A stretch of 64,000 nt of DNA from an uncultured Pirellulaceae bacterium (GTDB lineage Bacteria > Planctomycetota > Planctomycetia > Pirellulales > Pirellulaceae), in the NCBI GenBank assembly GCA_963975425.1, contig CAXBGS010000004.1, forward strand, positions 525,953 through 589,952, read 5' to 3'. The notes under the pieces are model-generated. The model was not told where the DNA came from. It saw only the letters and a list, made by a program, of their open reading frames with translations, and did no database searches. Numbering within the stretch: position 1 is the stretch's first letter; each line of letters starts with the position of its first letter. Below, piece by piece: positions 22,708 to 35,202 of the stretch. The translations under genes were made by a program, and so were the position numbers.

Positions 22708-23622
22708 TCAAGTTTCCTCGTCATCGGCAAGTCGTGTCAGATAGTTTCCCATCAAGTGCGACGGCATGCCTTGGCGAATCTCGCCCCAGATCAAATCAAC
22801 CACGTCGGAACTTAGTGTCGCGGTCGCAGCCTTAGCGGCGGCCGTGGTCGCGACCGTTTGGATCACGTTGGCCGCCTTTTGCATATTGGACTGCCCCACC
22901 ACGATTTCCTGTTCGCAGTGGTTGTAGTTGTTGTGCAGCAAACTCATCATCGGCAATCGCGGTACCAGATCACCCGCGTCGACATAGCGAAATACCTTGC
23001 TCGGAAATTCACGGGCAAATGCCGCCGCGGCGGCTTGGTTGCCGATCATCGGTGCGCCGAACGTACATACTTGATGTACCGGAATGAAGTTTTGATGCAA
23101 CCGCCACGCGAACAGCAATGCCAATGCGCCGCCCAGACTATGCCCAGTCACCCACACAGGCCGTTCGCTTGCGGCAAATCGTTGATCCACGCTTGCGTAA
23201 AGAGGTGCCCAGATTTCATCAAGCGCTTCGAGGAATCCGCGATGGAAACGGGCACCAACACCCGCCGCTGCGAAGTCGGTTCCGATACGCCCCGACGGAA
23301 TGACCAAGAAATTTCTCGCATTGGTCAACAGCCAATCCTTGACGCCGTCCAAACTTGTCGGTGATTGTGATCCGCGAAACGCGACAACAATACAGTCGTC
23401 GTTTTCGCCGACGTAGGCTTGCGTGTTGTCGACGCTGATCAATTCCGCATCCAGATCTAACAGTTCGCGAAACTTGGGTCGACCTGTTGGTTCAGACAGG
23501 TACGCCAATTCGCACGCGGTTGCCAGGTAGTGCGCGTGATGACGGGTGTGGCTCGTCCGAGGATCCAAGTGCACCACCGAACCCCGTTTGGCAGGTTTCG
23601 ACGAAGCGGATGAGTCGGTCAT
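22708..23622 (-). CDS. Lipase class 3 family alpha/beta hydrolase
   Basis: The nucleophile elbow VTGHSLGGALALLFAW (GHSLGG) and upstream VVAFRGSQS (Lipase_3 oxyanion region) are diagnostic for fungal-type class 3 lipases. Confidence 0.75.
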   Translation of the reverse strand: MTDSSASSKPAKRGSVVHLDPRTSHTRHHAHYLATACELAYLSEPTGRPKFRELLDLDAELISVDNTQAYVGENDDCIVVAFRGSQSPTSLDGVKDWLLTNARNFLVIPSGRIGTDFAAAGVGARFHRGFLEALDEIWAPLYASVDQRFAASERPVWVTGHSLGGALALLFAWRLHQNFIPVHQVCTFGAPMIGNQAAAAAFAREFPSKVFRYVDAGDLVPRLPMMSLLHNNYNHCEQEIVVGQSNMQKAANVIQTVATTAAAKAATATLSSDVVDLIWGEIRQGMPSHLMGNYLTRLADDEET

Positions 23623-23769
23623 AAAACAGTCCGTTTTCTAGGAAACGCGTTCTGGAAGACAGGTACAGCAATCGAGTTGGGCGATGCTGGGGCTCGGCGA
23701 TCGATCACTGGCAGCTCGCTATCAGCGGACACGGCTCAGCTCAGGATATCGGTCAGCGGATGACATGAT

Positions 23770-23854
23770 TTATCTCAGGGCACCTTTTATCTCAGAACTC
23801 GGCTTATCTCAGAACTCGGCTTATCTCAGAACTCGGCTTATCTCAGAACTCGGC
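23770..23854. repeat. 17-bp direct tandem repeat (TTATCTCAGAACTCGGC) x4 plus one degenerate leading copy
   Basis: Perfect copies at 23787-23803, 23804-23820, 23821-23837 and 23838-23854. There is a degenerate copy at about 23770-23786. The last copy overlaps the stop codon of the LRR gene. The array lies about 150 bp upstream of the lipase start. Confidence 0.85.
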
Positions 23855-24434
23855 GATCACCGGACTGTGCTTTCCAATCCTTGACGGCATCAAGACTGAT
23901 GGTCGTCTCACGCAGATCAAGCCGTTTCAACCCGGACATCGGCGTAATCCATTGGGCAAATCCATCGTCAGTAATACCTGTGGCACGGAGCTTCAGCGAG
24001 CGCAAACCGGAAAGCCGAGATAAATGTTTTAGCCCCGCGTCGGTGACGCGCGTGTCATTGAGGTCTAACTCACGCAGGTTTGCCATGCCTTTTAAATAAA
24101 TCAGCGTCTGATCATCGACATCCGCGTTGGCCATCTGCAGCACGATTGTTTCGGGGAATGCTTCCAATACGCGGTAATCTTTCTGATCCCACCCCGTCAA
24201 CGTGATGTGCCTTTCACCGTCGACCAAGACATTTCGTGGGCCCAGGTCGACATTGACGACGTATCGAGTCAACACCAAGGGCGTGACCAACGCGGCCAGT
24301 CCCACCAACAACAATAGCGACGGCAGCAGGAAACTCCAGTCTCGCCGCAGCGTCCGCGTGATCAGCCACAGCAGGCCTGCTGCCATCAGCACGAGTCCGG
24401 CATAGAATAGCAGTTCGAAAACCAAGTACATCAT
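23838..24434 (-). CDS. Leucine-rich repeat (LRR) protein with N-terminal transmembrane anchors
   Basis: It has two N-terminal hydrophobic helices. These are followed by LRR units (LRELDLNDTRVTDAGLKHLSRLSGLRSLKLRATGITDDGF...LKRLDLRETTIS), the bacterial LRR consensus LxxLxLxxTxItD. Confidence 0.6.
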   Translation of the reverse strand: MMYLVFELLFYAGLVLMAAGLLWLITRTLRRDWSFLLPSLLLLVGLAALVTPLVLTRYVVNVDLGPRNVLVDGERHITLTGWDQKDYRVLEAFPETIVLQMANADVDDQTLIYLKGMANLRELDLNDTRVTDAGLKHLSRLSGLRSLKLRATGITDDGFAQWITPMSGLKRLDLRETTISLDAVKDWKAQSGDRRVLR

Positions 24435-25508: not shown

Positions 25509-28500
25509 TCACGAGTCAGTTTTCTTCGCCGACTGAAACGTCGCTTCGATCGATTCATAGTTTTCTAACATTGCGGTCAACTGCGCCTGCAATTTTTCCA
25601 GATCGCGTCCGTTGTCGATCGATTCGTTTAAGATCGGACGCAACCATTCCTGCATCAAGTGGAATTGGCCTTTCACCAAATCCGCCAGCACACGAGGCAC
25701 CTTGTGCTGGACAAAGACTTTTTGGTCAGGGGGCGCCAGTTGCTGTTGTCGTGCCTGCAACTCGGCGATCTGGCTGAGTTGTTTGCTGGTCGATTCCAGC
25801 GTTTCGGATAACCGTCCGCCCGATTCGGCCAAGCTCTTGCGAAGCGAGTTGACTCGTTCGTCCATCCGTTGCTCGGATTCTTCGTTGCCCACGGCAATTG
25901 CACGCGAAATCACTTGCCGGATCGATTCGAGGCCATCTCGCATCGATGCCAGTTGACGCATCAATTGGCCTGCCTGATCATCACTATCCATCCCCGACAT
26001 GCGAACGTTTTCGACGTAAGCATATTTGATCGCGTCCCAACGTTCCTTTTCCTCCGCGGACAAGATGCCCATCAACTCTTTGAACTTCAGCACGTTCGCT
26101 TCGTTGTCGGTCGTCAGCGTCTGGGCGTCTTGTTCATAGTTGCTGATGATCAGTGCTTGCAGTTCCGCGTCGTTCATCACGCCCGCCACACGTTCGGCGA
26201 TGCGATTCATATTTCGATAGCTGCCCTGCAGCTTGAACGGCGGCTCGGTACGGTAAGCATCGGCCTGTGCCGCGCTGCGGATGTAAGCACGATTGACCTT
26301 CAACACAACGTCACGCACTCGCAAAAGCTTGCGAAGAATTTCAAACATCTCGCGAACCTGATCGCTAGACAGATTGCTCTGCAATTCGATTCCGTCCAGC
26401 GTGTCTCGCTGAGCGGCGTTGATCAGCATCCGAGCGTCATCGGGAGTCGCGGTCGACAGCGGGGCCAATGCAGGGTTACTCGTCAAACAGTTTTCCAAGT
26501 AGCTCATTTCGAAAGCGTCGGAAGCGTCCCCGATAATCTCGCCCAGGTTGTAAACATCGGCACGGTTGGAAAGCATGTCCGGAATCTGGAACCGTTCGCC
26601 GCTTTCGGTATAAGGGTTTCCGGCCATCACGACGGCTACTCGACGTCCGCGCAGGTCGTACGTTCGGGTCCGCCCGTTGTGAACGCCTTCGATCTTTCGT
26701 GTCGCATCGCAGAGTGAAATGAATTTCTGCAACAATTCGGGATTGGTGTGTTGGATGTCATCGAGATACAGCATCACGTTATCGCCCATCTCGAGCGCCA
26801 AATTCAAACGTTCAATCTCCTCGCGAGCGGCGGCATTGGGCGCTTCGGCGGGATCCAGCGACGTGACACCGTGGCCAATCGCGGGACCATTGATTTTCAT
26901 GAACACGATGCCTAACCGATTCGCGACATATTCCATCAACGTCGTTTTCCCGTATCCCGGCGGCGAAATCAGCAGCAACAGCCCCATGCGGTCGGTTCGC
27001 TTGTCGGCACCGGCAGCGCCCATCTGCTTTGCCAGATTGTCACCGATCAACGGCAAGTAGACTTCGTCAAGCAAGCGGTTCCGCACAAAACTTGTCAGCA
27101 CACGTGGCTTGAACTCCTCAAGCCGCATGTCTTCGCGAGAAGATTCGACGATTCTGGTTTTCGCTTCATGCAGCGCGTGAAAGCGTGGCACGACGTCGTC
27201 CAAGTAATGTCGGACGCGAGCAAGCAGTTCGTGGTAATGCAACGACATCGCACCTCGGGTCAGCCGCGAGTGATTGCCGACGAGGCCTTCCAAGTGGGTT
27301 GCAACGTCAACCTTTTGGACCGATCCGGTCGCGGGGCCGCCTGTCATGATCAGCCAAGCCAACTCGTCGCCGTATCCCGCGGCAGGATCAATCTCGTCTT
27401 CGTCGCCGTGAGTCTGCAAGAACGCATCGGCCCAGTTCCTGGCCAGCACATAGCTGCGCAGCGGATCCGATTCGTTCGACTTAAGTGCGGCCGTCAACAA
27501 CTTGTCGCGTTCGCTGGTCGGAATTGCGGCGACGAACTGATCGTACAGGTTGGCCGCGCGTCCACTGGTCACCGCTTTGCGTGGCGACTGGACCAATTGA
27601 TCAAACAAGTAATCAGCGATTCGAATTGGGTGAACGCTTTTTGAAAACAATGGCGACCACTGGTCGGCGTCTGATTGAGCTAGACTTTCCAGCCTCTCGC
27701 GAAATTCGACCGCGGGCCGTGCCTGCGGATACGCTTTGGCGAGTTTTGCAAAACCGGCGATCCAATCCGTCATCGCCTTGCGATTCTTGGGATCCAACAA
27801 TTTAGAGAACCACAATAACGCCGCGGCACGCACCGAAGGCGAGTGGGCCAGCAGACCAATCGACTGATCGATTGCGAGCAAGCGACTCAAGATCAATGCG
27901 GCATCAACGTCATGGACACCCTTGGCATAACCTTCGTTGAATCGATCGGCGACTTTCGCCTGAATCCAGGCGGGGCTGATGTCCGACGGTTTCACCGGTG
28001 GGTCTTGCTGACGCAGTCGAAGGAAGAGTTCAACTGCAAGGTACTCGCAGCGATAGACATCGGAATTTTCACTGACAAGTTCTTGGTTCCACAGATCCTT
28101 TGCCGCGACCAATGCCGGGTCACTAAGTGGTTCGAAGTATTGTGTGCCGGTAAGGTGCAAACACATTTCGCCACCGCGCAAGACCGTTGTCAAATCGAGC
28201 GGTTGCGTGTTGACGGCGAATCGTTTTTCGCCCAAGCGAATAATGTCGCCGCCGTCTTCGAATAAGTCTTGCCGATCCTTTTGCTGTCGCGTGGCGTCCT
28301 CGCGAATCGTCTTCAAGCGACTTTGCAGATCCTCCACTCGGACCGCATCGTCCAGTTGTTGCAATTGCGCGATGATGTCGCGAACTTTTTCAACCATCAG
28401 GTCGCCGGCAAAGTACGCGGCGATTTCATCGGTCGATTCCATCGCGCCCGCTCGCGTACTGATCCCCTTGAGAATACGATCGGCGGCCGACGCGAGCGTC

Positions 28501-30767
28501 TCGGCGCGACGATTGCGTTTCTCAACCAGCTGCACTTTCCGCGATTCAAACGCCGCATAGACGTCTTCGCGGCGCTGGGTTAACTGGACCACAAACTCGT
28601 CGAATTCGGCAAATCGGCCCTCGAGTTCTTCCAGTTGAACCATCACCTTGGTCAGATAGTCATCGCATTTCTCTGGAGAATCGCAGACGTCCAAGTATCC
28701 GGACGTGGTTTGCTGCAGCAATTTCAGCTGCGACGCGAATTCCGCCTTTCCTTCGACCGACAGCAACTCGCTTGAGCGTGCCTTCAAGCCGCTGCGAACC
28801 CGATTGAGCGACGCGAACACGTCTCCAATGGCATCGATGATCTCGGTTCGTTTCGTTGCATCATCGATCCGCAGATTGCTAACCGTTTCAGTCAGCAACT
28901 CTAATTGGCCAGAGGCTTGGTCGATTTCATCAGACAGTTCTTTTGCCTCGGCGACGCTGGATACCGCGGCAACTTTTTCTTCGGCCTGGCCAACTCGCTG
29001 GACATACGGGTCGAGAGCCCCCGGCGTCAACAAAAAATCGACGCACCGACGACTTAGCCGTTCGGATCGATCGGCGGTTTCTGTCTCAAGCGACTCGACG
29101 ATCGTTTCGTCAACATAGCGGAGTTCACGCAACCCGATCGCGTGCCCTCGTTGTTCTCGCAGTCGCCCGAGAAAATCGACGAAGTCATCAATCGATCCGA
29201 ACCGGCTGCGTTCGATTTGCTTGACAAGTTCGTCAACGGCTTGTTGGACTTCCTGCGTACGCTGCTGTGTGTCGCGTCGCACACGAACGACTTTGTCGAA
29301 CTCTTCAACCGCTGCGGAGGCCGTCTCTCGAATCTTTCCCAGTGGTTCAGAAAGCCGAAACGTTTCGGTCTTGTCGATCCAAAAGTAGCTATCCAGAATG
29401 TCGGATGCTTTCTTGACCAGATCGACGTACAGCCCTTCGTAGCTGTCTTCTTTGTCAATCAGTTGCAGCAACTCGCTGCATTCGGCCATGCCTCGAACGA
29501 TCTCTTTGTTACCGATTTTGAACAACAGCGAATCCGACTGGCTTTCGGTGGCCTGATCGTCGCTGGTGAATGGCGTTTGCCAAATTTGAACGGCATGATG
29601 TTTTTGCGGATCGGTCTGTGTTTGAAAGCAGACCATTTCGCCGCGGTCAAAAAAAGTCTGCCCGTGACAGATCAGCGGGGTCTCGACGGTTTGGCGGATG
29701 ATGTTGTAACGCAGCTGGACATAGGTGCCGGACTCGCTGTTGTAGAACAAATACAGATAGTCCTCTCCGTTGGGCGCAGCGACGGTGCGTTGGTATCGCA
29801 TGTTGCTAAGCCCGTGATCGAACCGTTTAAACTCGCCCGTTTGCAGGTAGTAACCGCCGGGAAAGACCAACCCCTGATCGCCGGGCAGCATCACGCAACA
29901 TTGGCCAATTTCATCTAAGCGAATCGCTCGCTGGATTTTCCCATTGAAAACGATGTAGCGGGTTTGTTCTTCTTGATATGGCTTGATTTTCATCAACACC
30001 AGATTGCCGACGATGGCGTAATGAATCTCAGCATCGTCAAGCGTTTGGTCGGCGTGGTCGACGGGCTCGTCATAGATGCCTTCGCCCGATTCGGTGTTAT
30101 TTTCGACCTTGATGGTCAGATCGCCGCCAACAGTTTCGACAAAAACGCGGTCGTCAATTGCGATATGCGGATGTGTGCCGTAATGATGCTGATCGCGTGT
30201 GGTTCGTGTCCAGCGAAATTCGTGTTGGCTGGGTTCACGGACTTCGTGTTCGCTGCGGTTGTCGACGTATTGGATCGAATCAGGTGCGACCCGCCATTTG
30301 AATGCCTTGATATCTCGTGAAGTCTTGCCGACTTGGAACACCATGTACAACATCGGTCCGGCGCGAAAAAAACGCGAGAACCTTGTGTCTTTATAAAATC
30401 GATACAGTTCGCCAAAATCGTTTGCGAAGCGCTCGTCACCGATCAGTCCCAGCGAATCGGCGTGGAACTGGTTATTTTCTAGCCGATAGACCGAAAAGAC
30501 GTCTTCTAATTCGATTTCAGTTTTCAGCCCAAACTGGACGTTGTATCCGAACAGAAAACGGTCACCGACCGACACCAAGTCTCGCGGGACACAATTATGC
30601 TCCGTCGTGACGCGTTCGCTAGTGATCAGTGTCGTCTCGATGTTGCCAAAGACTTCACCACGCGCGTCGTTCAACTGCGACAACCGGGTACGCAATTCGC
30701 CCGATGCATCCCGCAAGCGATTGCGGAGCACTTCGTAGGTACCGGCGGCGAGTTGAGAATCAGTCAT
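25509..30767 (-). CDS. Giant (1752 aa) AAA+ ATPase-domain protein of unknown function; single AAA_5/MoxR/dynein-like module near residues 1255-1400 flanked by long coiled-coil regions
   Basis: Walker A is MGLLLLISPPGYGKTTLMEYV (about residue 1265). Walker B is NVMLYLDDIQHT (about 1334). A sensor-like VAVVMAGNPY follows. This GPPGxGKT / hydrophobic-DD / xxGNP pattern is that of AAA_5-type ATPases. The N-terminal 1250 aa have no motif I recognise. Residues roughly 480-800 and the last 350 aa are heptad-rich and charged. It is co-oriented with flotillin, 170 bp downstream of it. Confidence 0.75.
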   Translation of the reverse strand: MTDSQLAAGTYEVLRNRLRDASGELRTRLSQLNDARGEVFGNIETTLITSERVTTEHNCVPRDLVSVGDRFLFGYNVQFGLKTEIELEDVFSVYRLENNQFHADSLGLIGDERFANDFGELYRFYKDTRFSRFFRAGPMLYMVFQVGKTSRDIKAFKWRVAPDSIQYVDNRSEHEVREPSQHEFRWTRTTRDQHHYGTHPHIAIDDRVFVETVGGDLTIKVENNTESGEGIYDEPVDHADQTLDDAEIHYAIVGNLVLMKIKPYQEEQTRYIVFNGKIQRAIRLDEIGQCCVMLPGDQGLVFPGGYYLQTGEFKRFDHGLSNMRYQRTVAAPNGEDYLYLFYNSESGTYVQLRYNIIRQTVETPLICHGQTFFDRGEMVCFQTQTDPQKHHAVQIWQTPFTSDDQATESQSDSLLFKIGNKEIVRGMAECSELLQLIDKEDSYEGLYVDLVKKASDILDSYFWIDKTETFRLSEPLGKIRETASAAVEEFDKVVRVRRDTQQRTQEVQQAVDELVKQIERSRFGSIDDFVDFLGRLREQRGHAIGLRELRYVDETIVESLETETADRSERLSRRCVDFLLTPGALDPYVQRVGQAEEKVAAVSSVAEAKELSDEIDQASGQLELLTETVSNLRIDDATKRTEIIDAIGDVFASLNRVRSGLKARSSELLSVEGKAEFASQLKLLQQTTSGYLDVCDSPEKCDDYLTKVMVQLEELEGRFAEFDEFVVQLTQRREDVYAAFESRKVQLVEKRNRRAETLASAADRILKGISTRAGAMESTDEIAAYFAGDLMVEKVRDIIAQLQQLDDAVRVEDLQSRLKTIREDATRQQKDRQDLFEDGGDIIRLGEKRFAVNTQPLDLTTVLRGGEMCLHLTGTQYFEPLSDPALVAAKDLWNQELVSENSDVYRCEYLAVELFLRLRQQDPPVKPSDISPAWIQAKVADRFNEGYAKGVHDVDAALILSRLLAIDQSIGLLAHSPSVRAAALLWFSKLLDPKNRKAMTDWIAGFAKLAKAYPQARPAVEFRERLESLAQSDADQWSPLFSKSVHPIRIADYLFDQLVQSPRKAVTSGRAANLYDQFVAAIPTSERDKLLTAALKSNESDPLRSYVLARNWADAFLQTHGDEDEIDPAAGYGDELAWLIMTGGPATGSVQKVDVATHLEGLVGNHSRLTRGAMSLHYHELLARVRHYLDDVVPRFHALHEAKTRIVESSREDMRLEEFKPRVLTSFVRNRLLDEVYLPLIGDNLAKQMGAAGADKRTDRMGLLLLISPPGYGKTTLMEYVANRLGIVFMKINGPAIGHGVTSLDPAEAPNAAAREEIERLNLALEMGDNVMLYLDDIQHTNPELLQKFISLCDATRKIEGVHNGRTRTYDLRGRRVAVVMAGNPYTESGERFQIPDMLSNRADVYNLGEIIGDASDAFEMSYLENCLTSNPALAPLSTATPDDARMLINAAQRDTLDGIELQSNLSSDQVREMFEILRKLLRVRDVVLKVNRAYIRSAAQADAYRTEPPFKLQGSYRNMNRIAERVAGVMNDAELQALIISNYEQDAQTLTTDNEANVLKFKELMGILSAEEKERWDAIKYAYVENVRMSGMDSDDQAGQLMRQLASMRDGLESIRQVISRAIAVGNEESEQRMDERVNSLRKSLAESGGRLSETLESTSKQLSQIAELQARQQQLAPPDQKVFVQHKVPRVLADLVKGQFHLMQEWLRPILNESIDNGRDLEKLQAQLTAMLENYESIEATFQSAKKTDS

Positions 30768-30937
30768 GATGCGTCGTGAAGTCAGGCAATTGAATCGGCG
30801 AAAAAGAGCAGGGTGCCGTTTCGTCAGGATGACACGGCCGACAGGTCATGGCCGCACGGCACTCGGCTCGCTCCGGCCCGTGAAGACCGAGGACGCGTGC
30901 CCGCATCGCCGGCGGTCAAAGCCGCGTGCGTGCGTCC

Positions 30938-33064
30938 CTACGCTTGTTTTCCGTTACCGGATGTCGCCGACGTGGTCAAAACACTAGCGGCTTTCTTGTC
31001 GGCGATTCTGGCGGTACCGGCCATGCCCAGCAAACTGGTCAGTTGCGTTCGCATGTCATCGGTCTTGGCCAGCCCCATCATTTTGGCGATCAATGCCGCG
31101 ATCGACAAATCCTTGACGCCGTCGGTATCTAAATTGAACTGCGACATCAACGATTTCATTTGATCGGTAAAGTACTCTGCGTTCCCGTCAAAGAACGTGT
31201 CTTTGATATCTGTCGCAACTTTACTGTTGTAGACGAATCGGTCGATCGCCTTTCCGCCCTTGACGGCCGATGTGATCTGCTCGAAGAACTCACCATCGCC
31301 ACCGACGATATCAATTCGGGCGGCCTTGAGCGCTTCCCCAACCACTCCCGCTTGGCTTTCGGCAATTCCTCGCTGCGCATCGATGGCTGCGATTTCGACA
31401 TCCTTTTCTTTGTTCAGCTGCAGCTTGAATTCTTCGTGATCCTTGCCGACGCTGTCGAGGACCTTCATCGCTTCGGCCTTTTCGGTAATTCCGGTGGCCT
31501 CGCTGCGGTACTTTTCCAGGTCGACGTTGGCTTCGGCTAATCCTTGTTTCTCGACTGCGGAAGCTTTCGCCTCGATTCCCTTGGCTTCGGCGACGGCTTT
31601 CTTTTCCAGGACGGCCGCTTCGGCGAGACCCTCTTTTTCCAAGCTGGCCGCTTTGGCTTCCTGAACGGTCGCTTCGGCCAAGCCGGATGCCGCTCGTGTT
31701 GCGGCTTCCGCTTCGGCCAGCATCTTGGCTGCAGCGGTTTCTTTCTCCGCGGCATCACGTTTGGCCTCGGCTTCGATACGAACCTTTTCGGCCATCAACT
31801 CGCTGGATTCCTTTTCGGCTTGCGCGAGCTTGGTTTGGCGAATCAGCTCTTCTTGAGCTCTCATTTCGGCGGCCGTCACCTGAACGGTCTTCAAACGTTC
31901 CGCGGCGGCAACTTCTTCGGTGTCCTTGATTCGTTCTTGTTCTTCCACGACGGCGCGTTCGACAGCGACACGTTCGCGGATGACTTCTTGGATGTTGCGT
32001 TTTTCGACTTCGATCGCTTTTTCCTTTTCGACGTCAGCCACACCGACCACGCGTAACCTTTCGGTCATTTCCAAATCGCGGTCTCGGTTGACGCGTTCCA
32101 ATTCGACCGCATCGGTCTTTTCTTTGTTTCGTTGGGCGACCAAGATTTGACGTAACTTGTTCTCCTCTGCCACGCCGATTTCCTCTTCGGTCACAATGCG
32201 GGCGCGTTCGGATTCCAGACGCTGTTCCTCTTGAACCTTGGCGGCGGAGGCTTTTTCCCGAGCAGTGATTTCGGCTATCTCGCGTTGCTGTTTTTCGACC
32301 GCTTCGACTCGTTGGCGTTCAAGCGCGAGGATGGTTTCCTCCGCTTCGACATCCTGTTTCTTTAACGTCTTTTCTTTGTCGCGGGTGAACTGATTCTCCT
32401 TGACCTTTTCTTGCGATGTCAGATCCGTGATTTTCTTGATGCCCTCGGCGTCCAAGATATTGGTCGGGCTAAGCAGGTTGAGCGGGGTTTGTTCCAGGTA
32501 GTCGATTGCGGCATCATCCAATCGATAACCGTTCAAGTCGGTGCCGATGACTTTCAGGATTTCATCTTTGAACTTGTCGCGTTGATCATACAGGTCGACA
32601 AAATCGAACTGCTTGCCAACCGTCTTCAGTGCTTCACTGAATTTTGCATCAAACAATTCGCGCAGCGTATCGATCTGGCTGCAGCGTTTGGCCCCGATCG
32701 ACTGAGCGACTTCTTTCTGCTCTTCCGGCGACTTATCAACGCGAACGAAGAAGGCAACTTTGATGTCGGCACGGATATTGTCTTTGCAAATCAATCCTTC
32801 AGAGCCCTGACGATGAATTTCGAAACTCTTTAGCGTCAAGTCCATGAACTCGTACTGATGAATCATCGGTACGACCCATAACCCGTCGCCCGATGCGACA
32901 CGAAGCCCACCTTGTCCGCTTCGGACAATCGCCACATCAGGTCCGACTTTGATGAAGAACTTTTTGAACGCGATCGCAACGCTGATAATGAACAGCAGCG
33001 CGAATCCGATCACGAGCAACGCGGCGTCGGTGCCCCAATTATTGGTAAAAAACTGTGCGATCAT
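30938..33064 (-). CDS. Flotillin family protein (SPFH/Band-7 domain, FloT/YqiK-like) with N-terminal TM and long EA-rich coiled-coil C-terminus
   Basis: The N-terminal helix is LLVIGFALLFIISVAIAF. The SPFH core reads GPDVAIVRSGQGGLRVASGDGLWVVPMIHQYEFMDLTLKSFEIHRQG...IKVAFFVRV. It has extended Glu/Ala/Lys heptad repeats and a C-terminal flotillin-type tail. Its ATG overlaps the upstream gene stop (ATGA at 33061-33064). Confidence 0.85.
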   Translation of the reverse strand: MIAQFFTNNWGTDAALLVIGFALLFIISVAIAFKKFFIKVGPDVAIVRSGQGGLRVASGDGLWVVPMIHQYEFMDLTLKSFEIHRQGSEGLICKDNIRADIKVAFFVRVDKSPEEQKEVAQSIGAKRCSQIDTLRELFDAKFSEALKTVGKQFDFVDLYDQRDKFKDEILKVIGTDLNGYRLDDAAIDYLEQTPLNLLSPTNILDAEGIKKITDLTSQEKVKENQFTRDKEKTLKKQDVEAEETILALERQRVEAVEKQQREIAEITAREKASAAKVQEEQRLESERARIVTEEEIGVAEENKLRQILVAQRNKEKTDAVELERVNRDRDLEMTERLRVVGVADVEKEKAIEVEKRNIQEVIRERVAVERAVVEEQERIKDTEEVAAAERLKTVQVTAAEMRAQEELIRQTKLAQAEKESSELMAEKVRIEAEAKRDAAEKETAAAKMLAEAEAATRAASGLAEATVQEAKAASLEKEGLAEAAVLEKKAVAEAKGIEAKASAVEKQGLAEANVDLEKYRSEATGITEKAEAMKVLDSVGKDHEEFKLQLNKEKDVEIAAIDAQRGIAESQAGVVGEALKAARIDIVGGDGEFFEQITSAVKGGKAIDRFVYNSKVATDIKDTFFDGNAEYFTDQMKSLMSQFNLDTDGVKDLSIAALIAKMMGLAKTDDMRTQLTSLLGMAGTARIADKKAASVLTTSATSGNGKQA

Positions 33065-33741
33065 TTCGAGTCCTCTTCAGATGCAGCGGTGACTTTGTAA
33101 ACTCGCCGTTCGTTATCAAATGCGATGATGCGTACCAACGATCCTTTGCTGATCGTTTCGCCGTCGGTGCGTATATTCAGCAACAAGGGCGCGGCATCGG
33201 TTGGGAATTTGGCCTGGCCGAACGAATCGGACACCTCTCCCGTGGAAACCGCGCAGGTCTTCCCAATAAGGTTGCTCGGATCGTATGTCGGCGCCGGCTC
33301 AAATGCCCGATTCAGGGGGCCTGTAAGAACCTTGGTCACCAAAATCGATATAACCCCGTTTCGAAGCACAAGCAGCACGCTGGGGATCAACGTCGGCGCA
33401 TATCGGTGGTGATCGAATCCGTACCACAGCACGTAGGAGATTCCCCAAAACGCGATGGTAAAGATTGACATCCAAAGCACCAAAGGCAGTCGCTGCAGGT
33501 TCAACCAACGCAGCGTCGCCGCACCGGCGCCCCCGAACAGGTCGCTTTGAATGTCCGCCGTGGCCGATGGAACATCGACATCCGCATCCAAGTCCGCGTC
33601 GAGATCGATTCCCAGGTCCAGGTCGATCAGCCCCAACAACGCAACGAAGGCATACACGATCAGCAGACAAACCAAGACGGACGCCGGCCATAATGGCCCA
33701 ACGAACATCCGCTCGAGTAACTGCACGAAAGATTCAGACAC
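33061..33741 (-). CDS. NfeD-like / YqiJ-family membrane protein (flotillin-associated OB-fold protein)
   Basis: It has N-terminal hydrophobic helices, an acidic DLDLGIDLDADLDADVDV segment and further TM helices. The C-terminal soluble beta-rich domain (GKTCAVSTGEVSDSFGQAKF...GSLVRIIAFDNERRVYKV) fits the NfeD OB-fold. Its position immediately upstream of flotillin, translationally coupled to it, mirrors the E. coli yqiJ-yqiK and B. subtilis nfeD-floT arrangements. Confidence 0.6.
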   Translation of the reverse strand: MSESFVQLLERMFVGPLWPASVLVCLLIVYAFVALLGLIDLDLGIDLDADLDADVDVPSATADIQSDLFGGAGAATLRWLNLQRLPLVLWMSIFTIAFWGISYVLWYGFDHHRYAPTLIPSVLLVLRNGVISILVTKVLTGPLNRAFEPAPTYDPSNLIGKTCAVSTGEVSDSFGQAKFPTDAAPLLLNIRTDGETISKGSLVRIIAFDNERRVYKVTAASEEDSK

Positions 33742-34014
33742 CGCTGCGTTTCCTGTCGGGGAGATTCACGCCCCTGGGATCTTTCGCCCGGGGGAATCAG
33801 AACGGCGTACTGCCGCTCCGTATAGCATGGCCTTTAAACGGACGACTCGGGGCGCGGACGAACGGCGAATTCTGCAGTTTTCCCGATCGCTATGCGGCGA
33901 AAGACCCAAAAACGGCGTAGACAGACGCCCCGGCGTTCGGAATTTCAGCGCGACCGAATTCTGGCCGGTCCGGTAACCGGAACAACGAGCCAGAACTGCG
34001 TCCCAGTGGATGTC

Positions 34015-35202
34015 CTAGTGGATGATGTCCAGCTGGCTGGAGGGCAGTTCACCTGGGTCGGACGTCGCTGCACTGATGCGCCCGCGATCGGCGAGCGTCT
34101 GCAAGTCCAGCAATCCAATCAAGCGTTCCGATGAATCGACAACCGGTACGGTGCGATTTCCTCGACCGGCGGTCAGCACGACCGATTCGATATCATCGTC
34201 CAGCTTGACCGTGACAACACCATGGTCGGCAAGCTGGCCGGCGGTGCTATTGCCGTCTTCACCTTTTTCGATCGCCTTGGCAACATCCGCTAATCGCAGG
34301 ACACCGACAACGCTTCCGCTGATTGAAATGACCGGCAATTCGCTGACGGTCACGCGACTCCAGATGCGGCGAATCTCCGAGAGCGGAGTATCCATCAAGA
34401 TCGATGGCGGATCATGAATCATCGATCGGTAAATGCTCGATCCGCGGACCGATTCGGTCAAGTCAACTTGTCGGGCTTCGGCCACGCCGGCATAAGCGAT
34501 GAACAGCGCGATCAACAGCGTGATGGGATTGCCGACATTCAGCGCAAACAAAGCCATCATTCCGGCACAAACCAATCCGACACGCGAAGCGATATAGGTC
34601 GCTTTGCCGTAACTGGTGACCATCGCCAGCAGACTGCGAAAGACGCGGCCGCCGTCCATCGGGAACGCCGGAACCATGTTAAAAACGACCAATGCGATGT
34701 TGGCCATCAACATGATGAATAGAAAACCGACCAGCGACGGCGTCTGCAGCGGATCGACATCATTCAAGCTGCCGAATAAGTCCATCACCGGCTGCCAAGC
34801 GAACACGTACATCCCCACGACCAATAGCGAACCGATCACGACATTGACGGCCGGCCCAGCGACGGCGACGACCAACTCGTGAAAAGGAATCCGCGGCATC
34901 CGTTCGAGCCTGGCGACGCCGCCGATCGGAAACAGCGTGATATCGACGGTGGAAATGCCATACATTCGTGCCGCCATCGCGTGCCCGTACTCGTGCAGCG
35001 TCACACAGGAGAAAATGCCTAACGCGACCGCGACCGAAAAGATCATGCCCGGTGTGCCATACTCGCGAGCCTGGTACGCCACAAAACCCAACAACAGCAG
35101 GAATGTCCAATGAACGTATAGTCCGATCCCCAAGTAGGTTCCCAGCTTCAAACGTTTATCGAACACATGTCTTCCGTCAAAAGTGGACTCCCGTCGCGGC
35201 AC
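34015..35202 (-). CDS. Site-2 protease family (peptidase M50) with C-terminal CBS domain pair
   Basis: HEYGHAMAARMYG is the HExxH zinc motif in a TM helix. MVPAFPMDGGRV is the second metal-ligand motif (xxDG). It is a multi-TM protein. A C-terminal CBS-like tandem reads VTVSELPVISISGSVVGVLRLADV...VPVVDSSERLIGLLDLQTL. GTG start at 35202. Confidence 0.8.
   Translation of the reverse strand: MPRRESTFDGRHVFDKRLKLGTYLGIGLYVHWTFLLLLGFVAYQAREYGTPGMIFSVAVALGIFSCVTLHEYGHAMAARMYGISTVDITLFPIGGVARLERMPRIPFHELVVAVAGPAVNVVIGSLLVVGMYVFAWQPVMDLFGSLNDVDPLQTPSLVGFLFIMLMANIALVVFNMVPAFPMDGGRVFRSLLAMVTSYGKATYIASRVGLVCAGMMALFALNVGNPITLLIALFIAYAGVAEARQVDLTESVRGSSIYRSMIHDPPSILMDTPLSEIRRIWSRVTVSELPVISISGSVVGVLRLADVAKAIEKGEDGNSTAGQLADHGVVTVKLDDDIESVVLTAGRGNRTVPVVDSSERLIGLLDLQTLADRGRISAATSDPGELPSSQLDIIH

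Follow-up and report, generated by a model that had tools for sequence, protein, structure and literature searches.

A DUF3686 AAA+ ATPase of 1752 residues encoded with a YqiJ-like protein and a flotillin in a Pirellulaceae bacterium: a probable PspA-less form of an operon linked to envelope stress

Operons that place a flotillin together with a large AAA+ ATPase have been described by comparative genomics. Specifically, Ravi et al. (2024; mSystems 9:e00847-23, PMC11237479) reported an operon that combines CesT/Tir-PspA, a YqiJ/YuaF protein with three transmembrane segments, a band-7/flotillin protein and an AAA+ ATPase with a beta-propeller and coiled coils; it sometimes includes a phospholipase D (PLD, HKD) hydrolase, 'abbreviated' operons without PspA were also described, and a role in the assembly of sub-membrane complexes was proposed. 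The supplement to that work gives the neighbourhood of Dokdonia donghaensis ANH61663.1 as an example. A shorter arrangement, in which the gene for an NfeD-like membrane protein is followed by that for a flotillin, is found in E. coli (yqiJ-yqiK) and B. subtilis (yuaF-floT). Here we analyse a locus that shares this gene pair and carries a third gene, for a giant ATPase, after it. The locus lies at positions 25509 to 33741 of a 64,000-nucleotide (nt) stretch of DNA, referred to below as the window, from an uncultured Pirellulaceae bacterium (assembly GCA_963975425.1, contig CAXBGS010000004.1, positions 525,953 to 589,952).

The three proteins encoded by the locus are of the same types as those of the published operon and stand in the same order, namely a YqiJ/YuaF-type protein with three transmembrane segments, a protein with a transmembrane segment, a band-7 domain and a coiled coil, and an AAA+ protein with a propeller and coiled coils. 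What differs from the full published form is that the window, over its 64 kb, has neither the CesT/Tir-PspA dyad nor a PLD gene. The full operon is reproduced gene for gene by Bacteroidota loci (a regulator with helix-turn-helix (HTH) and S24 domains, CesT_Tir_1, PspA, YqiJ-like protein, flotillin and ATPase), and since the Dokdonia gene string is the same as the string recovered in Flavobacteriaceae, we regard the locus in the window as the abbreviated form of the described architecture. The published AAA+ protein is probably a member of the DUF3686 family, to judge by the identical architecture and neighbourhood in Flavobacteriaceae. An earlier interpretation of the window, made from its letters and open reading frames (ORFs) and called here the sequence-only reading, had held that a giant ATPase as partner of a flotillin scaffold was not a described architecture; this does not stand, as Ravi et al. 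(2024; PMC11237479) describe the association, including its form without PspA. The finding itself adds little beyond the published comparative genomics, and the system is one described computationally. We consider, with a probability of roughly 60%, that the three genes are one conserved functional unit and represent the PspA-less form of the flotillin, YqiJ/YuaF and propeller/coiled-coil AAA+ operon that is linked to PspA envelope stress.

ORF calls and translations place the three genes as co-oriented ORFs on the minus strand, in the order YqiJ-like protein, flotillin, giant ATPase. The features of the locus are as follows (aa, amino acids; PGAP, the NCBI Prokaryotic Genome Annotation Pipeline):

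33061..33741, minus strand: gene for a YqiJ/YuaF-type (NfeD-like) membrane protein, 226 aa, GTG start (ORF and translation)
33061..33064, minus strand: ATGA stop/start overlap of the YqiJ-like and flotillin genes, 4 nt
30938..33064, minus strand: gene for a YqiK-type flotillin, 708 aa (ORF and translation)
30768..30937, minus strand: intergenic spacer between the flotillin and ATPase genes, 170 nt
25509..30767, minus strand: gene for a giant cytosolic AAA+ ATPase, 1752 aa, PGAP family name 'DNA repair ATPase'

The overlap can be read directly in ...GAAATGATCG..., and an overlap of this length (-4) between the YqiJ-like and flotillin genes recurs in many Pirellulaceae loci. The spacer that follows the flotillin gene differs in length among relatives, with a median of ~200 nt. 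Both the ATGA overlap of the NfeD/YqiJ and flotillin genes and the third co-oriented gene of 1752 aa, 170 bp downstream, are thus as the sequence-only reading had given them. The three genes are bounded as a unit by an M50+CBS peptidase gene upstream on the same strand (34015-35202, minus) and by a convergent FKBP gene downstream.

The evidence that carries our reading is the conservation of gene order across genomes. A pattern scan of one genome per species, for which the search patterns were taken from a narrower alignment (A2), the first alignment (A1) being too diverse, gave at least 590 confirmed relatives; 80 loci were kept and subjected to crude ORF calling and all-against-all clustering. 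These loci come from Planctomycetota (Pirellulales, Planctomycetaceae, Phycisphaerae), Bacteroidota (Flavobacteriales, Cytophagales, Chitinophagales, Saprospiraceae), Verrucomicrobiales and Acidobacteriota. Only three gene clusters are widely shared among them, those of the ATPase (72 loci), the flotillin (70) and the YqiJ-like protein (59), and these always follow the order YqiJ-like, flotillin, ATPase on one strand. Where at least 3.2 kb of upstream DNA is available, the flotillin gene lies directly upstream of the ATPase gene on the same strand in 64 of 66 loci. Nine loci at a greater distance (27-45% identity), from Gammaproteobacteria, Actinomycetota, Deinococcota and unassigned metagenome contigs, carry the triad as well; they are those of Pseudomonas sihuiensis, Pragia fontium, Gilliamella apicola, three metagenome contigs in which a profile search confirmed it, a linear plasmid of Streptomyces, a megaplasmid of Deinococcus and plasmid pQBR103 of P. 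fluorescens SBW25. Judged by these sequence comparisons, the operon is real and conserved across at least seven bacterial phyla, and a motif-intact giant AAA+ protein is encoded in an operon with a flotillin and YqiJ in hundreds of species. The sequence-only reading had proposed the ATPase as a dedicated partner of the flotillin/YqiJ pair and had made this depend on recurrent adjacency; adjacency is strongly recurrent, also outside the Planctomycetota, and at the genomic level the partnership is borne out. The contrary view, that a two-gene flotillin module happens to lie beside an unrelated large gene, could draw on the 170-nt spacer and on read-through across it being unproven, but with order and strand kept in all but two of those 66 loci and over such a range of phyla the synteny data already refute it, and we give it next to no weight.

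Flotillin and YqiJ are the only invariant partners of the ATPase in the triad, and other genes accompany it in particular lineages. PspA_IM30 lies upstream of the triad in 17 Bacteroidota loci, with CesT_Tir_1 and a divergent HTH+S24 regulator also present in 16, and DUF2170 and PspA precede the triad in Pseudomonas and Gilliamella. In total PspA is near the triad in 17 of the 66 loci and in none of those from Planctomycetota. One possibility is that PspA/IM30 polymers, which are of the ESCRT-III type, are the true substrate of the ATPase, which would then be a functional analogue of Vps4, with flotillin and YqiJ acting only as a recruiting membrane platform. The position of PspA directly upstream of the triad, with its CesT/Tir partner in Bacteroidota and also in Pseudomonas, Gilliamella and pQBR103, would be consistent with this, as would the placing of the ATPase among PspA partners by Ravi et al. 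(2024; PMC11237479) and the statement, in a 2025 review that also lists the roles of the band-7 partners of PspA as undetermined, that no Vps4-like ATPase or regulator is known for bacterial PspA/ESCRT-III-type systems. However, most loci have no PspA gene nearby, among them that of the window and all those from Planctomycetota, whereas flotillin and YqiJ are nearly always there. Moreover, the AAA+ module looks MoxR-like rather than Vps4-like: its match to PF00004 takes in no more than 38 of the 131 positions of the profile, and neither Pfam nor Foldseek gave an MIT domain in the giant ATPase. We favour flotillin and YqiJ over PspA as the direct partners because they are the only invariant neighbours, and we regard PspA as the true substrate as rather unlikely.

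Several of the accessory genes are worth recording in their own right. The genes added downstream of the ATPase vary, with Rhomboid, PLDc_2 and an unknown protein in Pseudomonas (L082 12238-14090) and Pragia (L083 11946-15081), and TelA in a distant metagenome locus (L086 12001-13221). On pQBR103 (L091, NC_009444.1 85455-101563) a yjfJKLMC-like block, made up of PspA, rhomboid, DUF2491, DUF350, DUF1190 and glutathionylspermidine-synthase-like genes, is joined directly to a triad of YqiJ-like, SPFH and 'DNA repair ATPase' genes; this locus merges the two PspA operon classes of Ravi et al. In Bacteroidota the flotillin and ATPase genes can be separated by one to four small ORFs of poor conservation (L041 7600-10000, L050 8300-10000, L062 7400-10000 and others). 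These inserted ORFs include tandem transmembrane proteins of ~83 aa (cluster c28) and have no significant match in Pfam, with one sub-threshold match to DUF6779.

A different function would be that of an anti-phage or conflict system, with a sensor in the membrane linked to a large NTPase and also, for certain lineages, to effectors of the PLD or rhomboid type. This could be suggested by the HKD/PLDc_2 and rhomboid genes attached to some triad operons, by the variable small ORFs of Bacteroidota, by the copy on the megaplasmid pQBR103 and by a weak PADLOC match to IetA (E=0.0023, 29 residues at Walker A only). We think this improbable. None of the three proteins has a significant match to a PADLOC family, and the ATPase family occurs in 0 of 50,697 phage records and in 13 of 72,556 plasmid records, most of these 13 being megaplasmids, chromids or chromosomes under a wrong label. 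Base composition is uniform along the window, and the identities of flotillin and ATPase co-vary over loci (r=0.87), which is consistent with vertical inheritance.

The giant ATPase itself is a full-length member of a large family. Of the candidates scored, 5100 are homologues at E<=1e-10, and there are 713 representatives of 50%-identity clusters; most members have 1600-1900 aa and carry the PGAP name 'DNA repair ATPase'. The sequence-only reading had left about 1250 aa of the protein as unassignable, which does not hold given two Pfam families in that part. The domains are, in window coordinates:

29382..30698, minus strand, aa 24-462: DUF3686 region (Pfam, E=4.6e-194), an N-terminal helix and a divergent beta-propeller (strands aa 46-397)
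28770..29018, minus strand, aa 584-666: DUF7902 (Pfam, E=7e-28), within a long helical/coiled-coil region, aa 403-835
26268..26978, minus strand, aa 1264-1500: single AAA+ module, alpha/beta core and lid (Pfam, motifs and AlphaFold2)

The AAA+ module has Walker A GYGKTT (1271-1276), Walker B LDDIQH (1335-1340), sensor-1 GNPYTE (1383-1388) and NRAD (1401-1404), and the Walker A, Walker B, sensor-1 (GNPY) and NR/Arg motifs are invariant in 20 family sequences at 27-45% identity. The module is the only one in the protein, in agreement with the one AAA+ module near the C-terminus that had been noticed from sequence. The series LDDIQH...GNPYTE...IPDMLSNRAD we take to resemble the MoxR pattern DEINR...TQNP...LxDRF. 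No transmembrane segment is predicted in the giant ATPase.

AlphaFold2 (AF2) models were built in two parts with an 81-sequence alignment, and their mean predicted local distance difference test (pLDDT) values are 86.9 (aa 1-700) and 85.6 (aa 700-1752). The predicted layout is:

aa 3-40: N-terminal helix
aa 46-397: beta domain of ~27 strands
aa 403-835: long helices
aa 842-880: small beta unit
aa 884-1142: helical domain
aa 1264-1500: AAA+ core and lid
aa 1500-1752: C-terminal helices, of low confidence after ~1620

In a Foldseek search against PDB all top matches of the N-terminal half are beta-propellers (E=3e-6 to 5e-4), at low template modelling scores (TM-scores) of ~0.3. The structural check of this region that had been proposed with the sequence-only reading therefore indicates a beta-propeller fold, at a TM-score that is low. 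The C-terminal half gives AAA+ matches only. Here the MoxR family (CbbQ, NorQ, RavA) has the best target-normalised TM-scores to the AAA+ core, with 0.60 for CbbQ2 and 0.46-0.56 for NorQ against 0.30-0.40 for RuvB, although Foldseek E-values are similar across AAA+ clades. The match to PF07728 (AAA_5) is sub-threshold (21.0 bits vs a cut-off of 22), and many homologues carry a precomputed PF07728. The earlier assignment of the module as MoxR/AAA_5-like is thus reasonable on the TM-scores, while its AAA_5 part falls just under the Pfam cut-off. The giant ATPase differs from the MoxR family in having about six times the size of a MoxR protein, with ~1260 aa of N-terminal domains.

It is also to be noted that aa 46-835 (window 28263-30632) have weak Foldseek matches to the terminal domain and linker of the clathrin heavy chain, a propeller followed by helical repeats (E ~4e-5 to 5e-4). 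A protocoatomer-like reading of the region was set aside, the TM-scores being only 0.15-0.24 and the family not being specific to the Planctomycetes, Verrucomicrobia and Chlamydiae (PVC) group.

The name that the family has inherited, 'ATPase involved in DNA repair' for DUF3686 in Pfam and 'DNA repair ATPase' in PGAP, would make the protein a DNA repair ATPase for which the adjacency to flotillin is functionally irrelevant. Apart from the name, a weak P-loop similarity to RuvB_N, sub-threshold at 25.3 bits vs a cut-off of 27, and the presence of RuvB among the Foldseek AAA+ matches could be taken in this sense, but only the generic AAA+ core resembles RuvB, and in structure the resemblance to MoxR-type ATPases is the stronger one. 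Moreover, no DNA-binding, nuclease or SMC-type domain was found in the giant ATPase, every conserved neighbour of the triad is a membrane or envelope-stress protein, and we found no paper that ties the family to DNA repair. We hold a role in DNA repair to be very improbable, and the PGAP name, which has spread through genomes, is probably misleading.

The identity of the flotillin is less easily seen by standard annotation. The full-length 708-aa protein has no match in Pfam (even at E=5), NCBIfam, PADLOC or PDB sequences, also when used as a profile. Scanned alone, aa 1-230 match Band_7 with E=5.1e-13, and in hhalign the alignment of the family profile with E. coli YqiK has a probability of 100% (E=3.6e-40, 397 columns); close homologues carry the names flotillin or YqiK. 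The protein is therefore a flotillin (SPFH), as the sequence-only reading had it, although more than a plain Pfam scan was required to see this. The empty full-length Pfam scan is a false negative, probably because the E/A/K-rich coiled coil triggers the HMMER bias filter. When scanned whole only 2 of 24 orthologues give a Band_7 match, and through this effect of coiled coils full-length scans may systematically overlook SPFH proteins. The parts of the flotillin are:

aa 9-42: transmembrane segment
aa 39-181: SPFH/Band_7 domain
~aa 230-530: E/A/K-rich coiled coil
~aa 530-708: conserved C-terminal domain

Basic residues follow the single N-terminal transmembrane segment, and their positive charge predicts that the bulk of the flotillin is in the cytoplasm. 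The C-terminal ~180 aa (aa 530-708, window 30941-31477, minus strand; 'flotC') are conserved across triad orthologues at 38-85% identity and have no match to Pfam Flot and no BLASTP similarity to E. coli YqiK. The Flot domain (PF15975) gives no match at E<=1 in the window flotillin, whole or in fragments, whereas E. coli YqiK, which is 155 aa shorter, matches Flot at E=6e-41. This C-terminal region may be specific to ATPase-associated flotillins, and is a candidate docking site.

The 226-aa protein matches Pfam YqiJ_N with E=9.7e-5, exactly at the cut-off, and a profile of 24 orthologues aligns in hhalign to E. coli YqiJ over almost its full length (97% probability, E=1.2e-10, 182 columns); on these two results its earlier description as YqiJ/NfeD-like is sound. 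Hydrophobic segments at aa 11-47, 85-106 and 116-140 are predicted to be three transmembrane segments, after which comes a C-terminal soluble domain. For the C-terminal oligonucleotide/oligosaccharide-binding (OB) fold there is no match to YqiJ_OB (PF07290) and a sub-cut-off match to NfeD (PF01957; E=0.011), and the hhalign alignment to YqiJ runs through the OB region, to residue 198 of 209. After the first transmembrane segment stands an acidic loop of DxDxD repeats (DLDLGIDLDADLDADVDV; aa 39-56, window 33574-33627, minus strand), the D-rich pattern of which is kept in the consensus of the 24 sequences, and this loop may bind cations.

SPFH cages are paired with AAA+ machines at the membrane in HflK/C-FtsH and in the prohibitin-m-AAA protease. 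The triad is similar in that an SPFH scaffold is paired with an AAA+ ATPase, here as a pairing of genes only, and differs in that the giant ATPase has no protease domain and no transmembrane segment, is of a MoxR-like AAA+ type and has an N-terminal region of propeller and coiled coils. We propose that the YqiJ-type protein, with its three predicted transmembrane segments, and the flotillin, with one, would build an SPFH scaffold at the inner membrane, on its cytoplasmic side. On this scaffold the giant ATPase, a soluble protein, would dock through its N-terminal propeller and helical arms, with the C-terminal domain of the flotillin as the candidate docking site. With ATP, the MoxR-like AAA+ ring may then build, remodel or take apart the flotillin assembly or the clients that it holds, a step that could form part of membrane maintenance or repair. 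In genomes that encode a PspA (ESCRT-III-type), whether within the operon or at another place, PspA and the unit probably act together. The gene identities, the domain architecture, the invariant ATPase motifs, the predicted topology and the synteny over phyla are what the analysis shows, and what we infer for the triad is its physical interaction, its substrate and its physiological role; the most likely function, and a plausible one, is ATP-driven remodelling of flotillin assemblies in membrane stress, which matches the proposal of Ravi et al. The ATPase of the triad is an obvious candidate for an energy-consuming step in the assembly, turnover and regulation of bacterial flotillin and PspA assemblies.

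A more specific suggestion, which we put forward tentatively and regard as possible but doubtful, is that with the giant DUF3686 ATPase we have the first machine dedicated to the ATP-driven assembly or disassembly of a bacterial SPFH/flotillin scaffold. Its MoxR-like ring would grip the C-terminal domain of the flotillin by way of the propeller and helical arms, and together with PspA, where this is present, it would form a bacterial membrane-repair machine that is functionally analogous to ESCRT-III/Vps4.

A number of points weigh against treating the three genes as one functional unit linked to PspA envelope stress. The usual partner of a MoxR-type ATPase is a VWA/MIDAS protein, for which no gene was found: neither the window neighbours scanned nor the neighbours listed in related loci have a VWA domain. 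Within the 64 kb there is also no PspA, CesT/Tir, DUF2170, PLD or rhomboid gene, and tblastn with PspA, CesT-like and DUF2170 queries gave nothing significant. In E. coli no ATPase gene follows yqiK, downstream of which are sibD/ibsD, and yqiJK works without such an ATPase, so that flotillins do not in general depend on the ATPase. In the 170-nt spacer consensus scans found no sigma-70-like promoter and no terminator-like hairpin, and its folding energy is at the level of shuffled sequence (z=-0.02), but for Planctomycetota such consensus scans are weak evidence, and co-transcription stays putative. Two loci, L024 and L067, have the ATPase with no flotillin or YqiJ-like gene within 10 kb upstream. 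Finally, literature searches for DUF3686/PF12458, for 'DNA repair ATPase' with flotillin and for flotillin with MoxR and NfeD returned nothing, no experimental work on co-transcription, interaction or function was found in the literature for any family member, and papers on Shewanella SO1377 and on the SPFH protein of P. aeruginosa make no mention of such an ATPase.

In L067 the ATPase ORF has only 932 aa and the AAA+ region is missing; it may represent a paralogue, a pseudogene or a fault of the assembly.

Around the locus, the window gave no match in Rfam and tRNA scans. The M50+CBS peptidase gene (cluster c15) precedes the triad in 4 Pirellulaceae loci, and a terminator-like hairpin lies between this gene and the YqiJ-like gene at 33914-33929, the count of hairpins in the region being not above chance (16 vs 13.2 expected). 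Past the FKBP gene, at 22708-24434 on the minus strand, are genes for a small protein with a transmembrane segment and leucine-rich repeats (198 aa) and a class-3 lipase (304 aa), neither of which is conserved beside the triad elsewhere. Proteins identical to those of the locus are already in public databases, from a TARA Oceans metagenome scaffold, and the nearest relatives of both large proteins are from Pirellulaceae (Novipirellula, Stieleria, Rubripirellula, Rhodopirellula).

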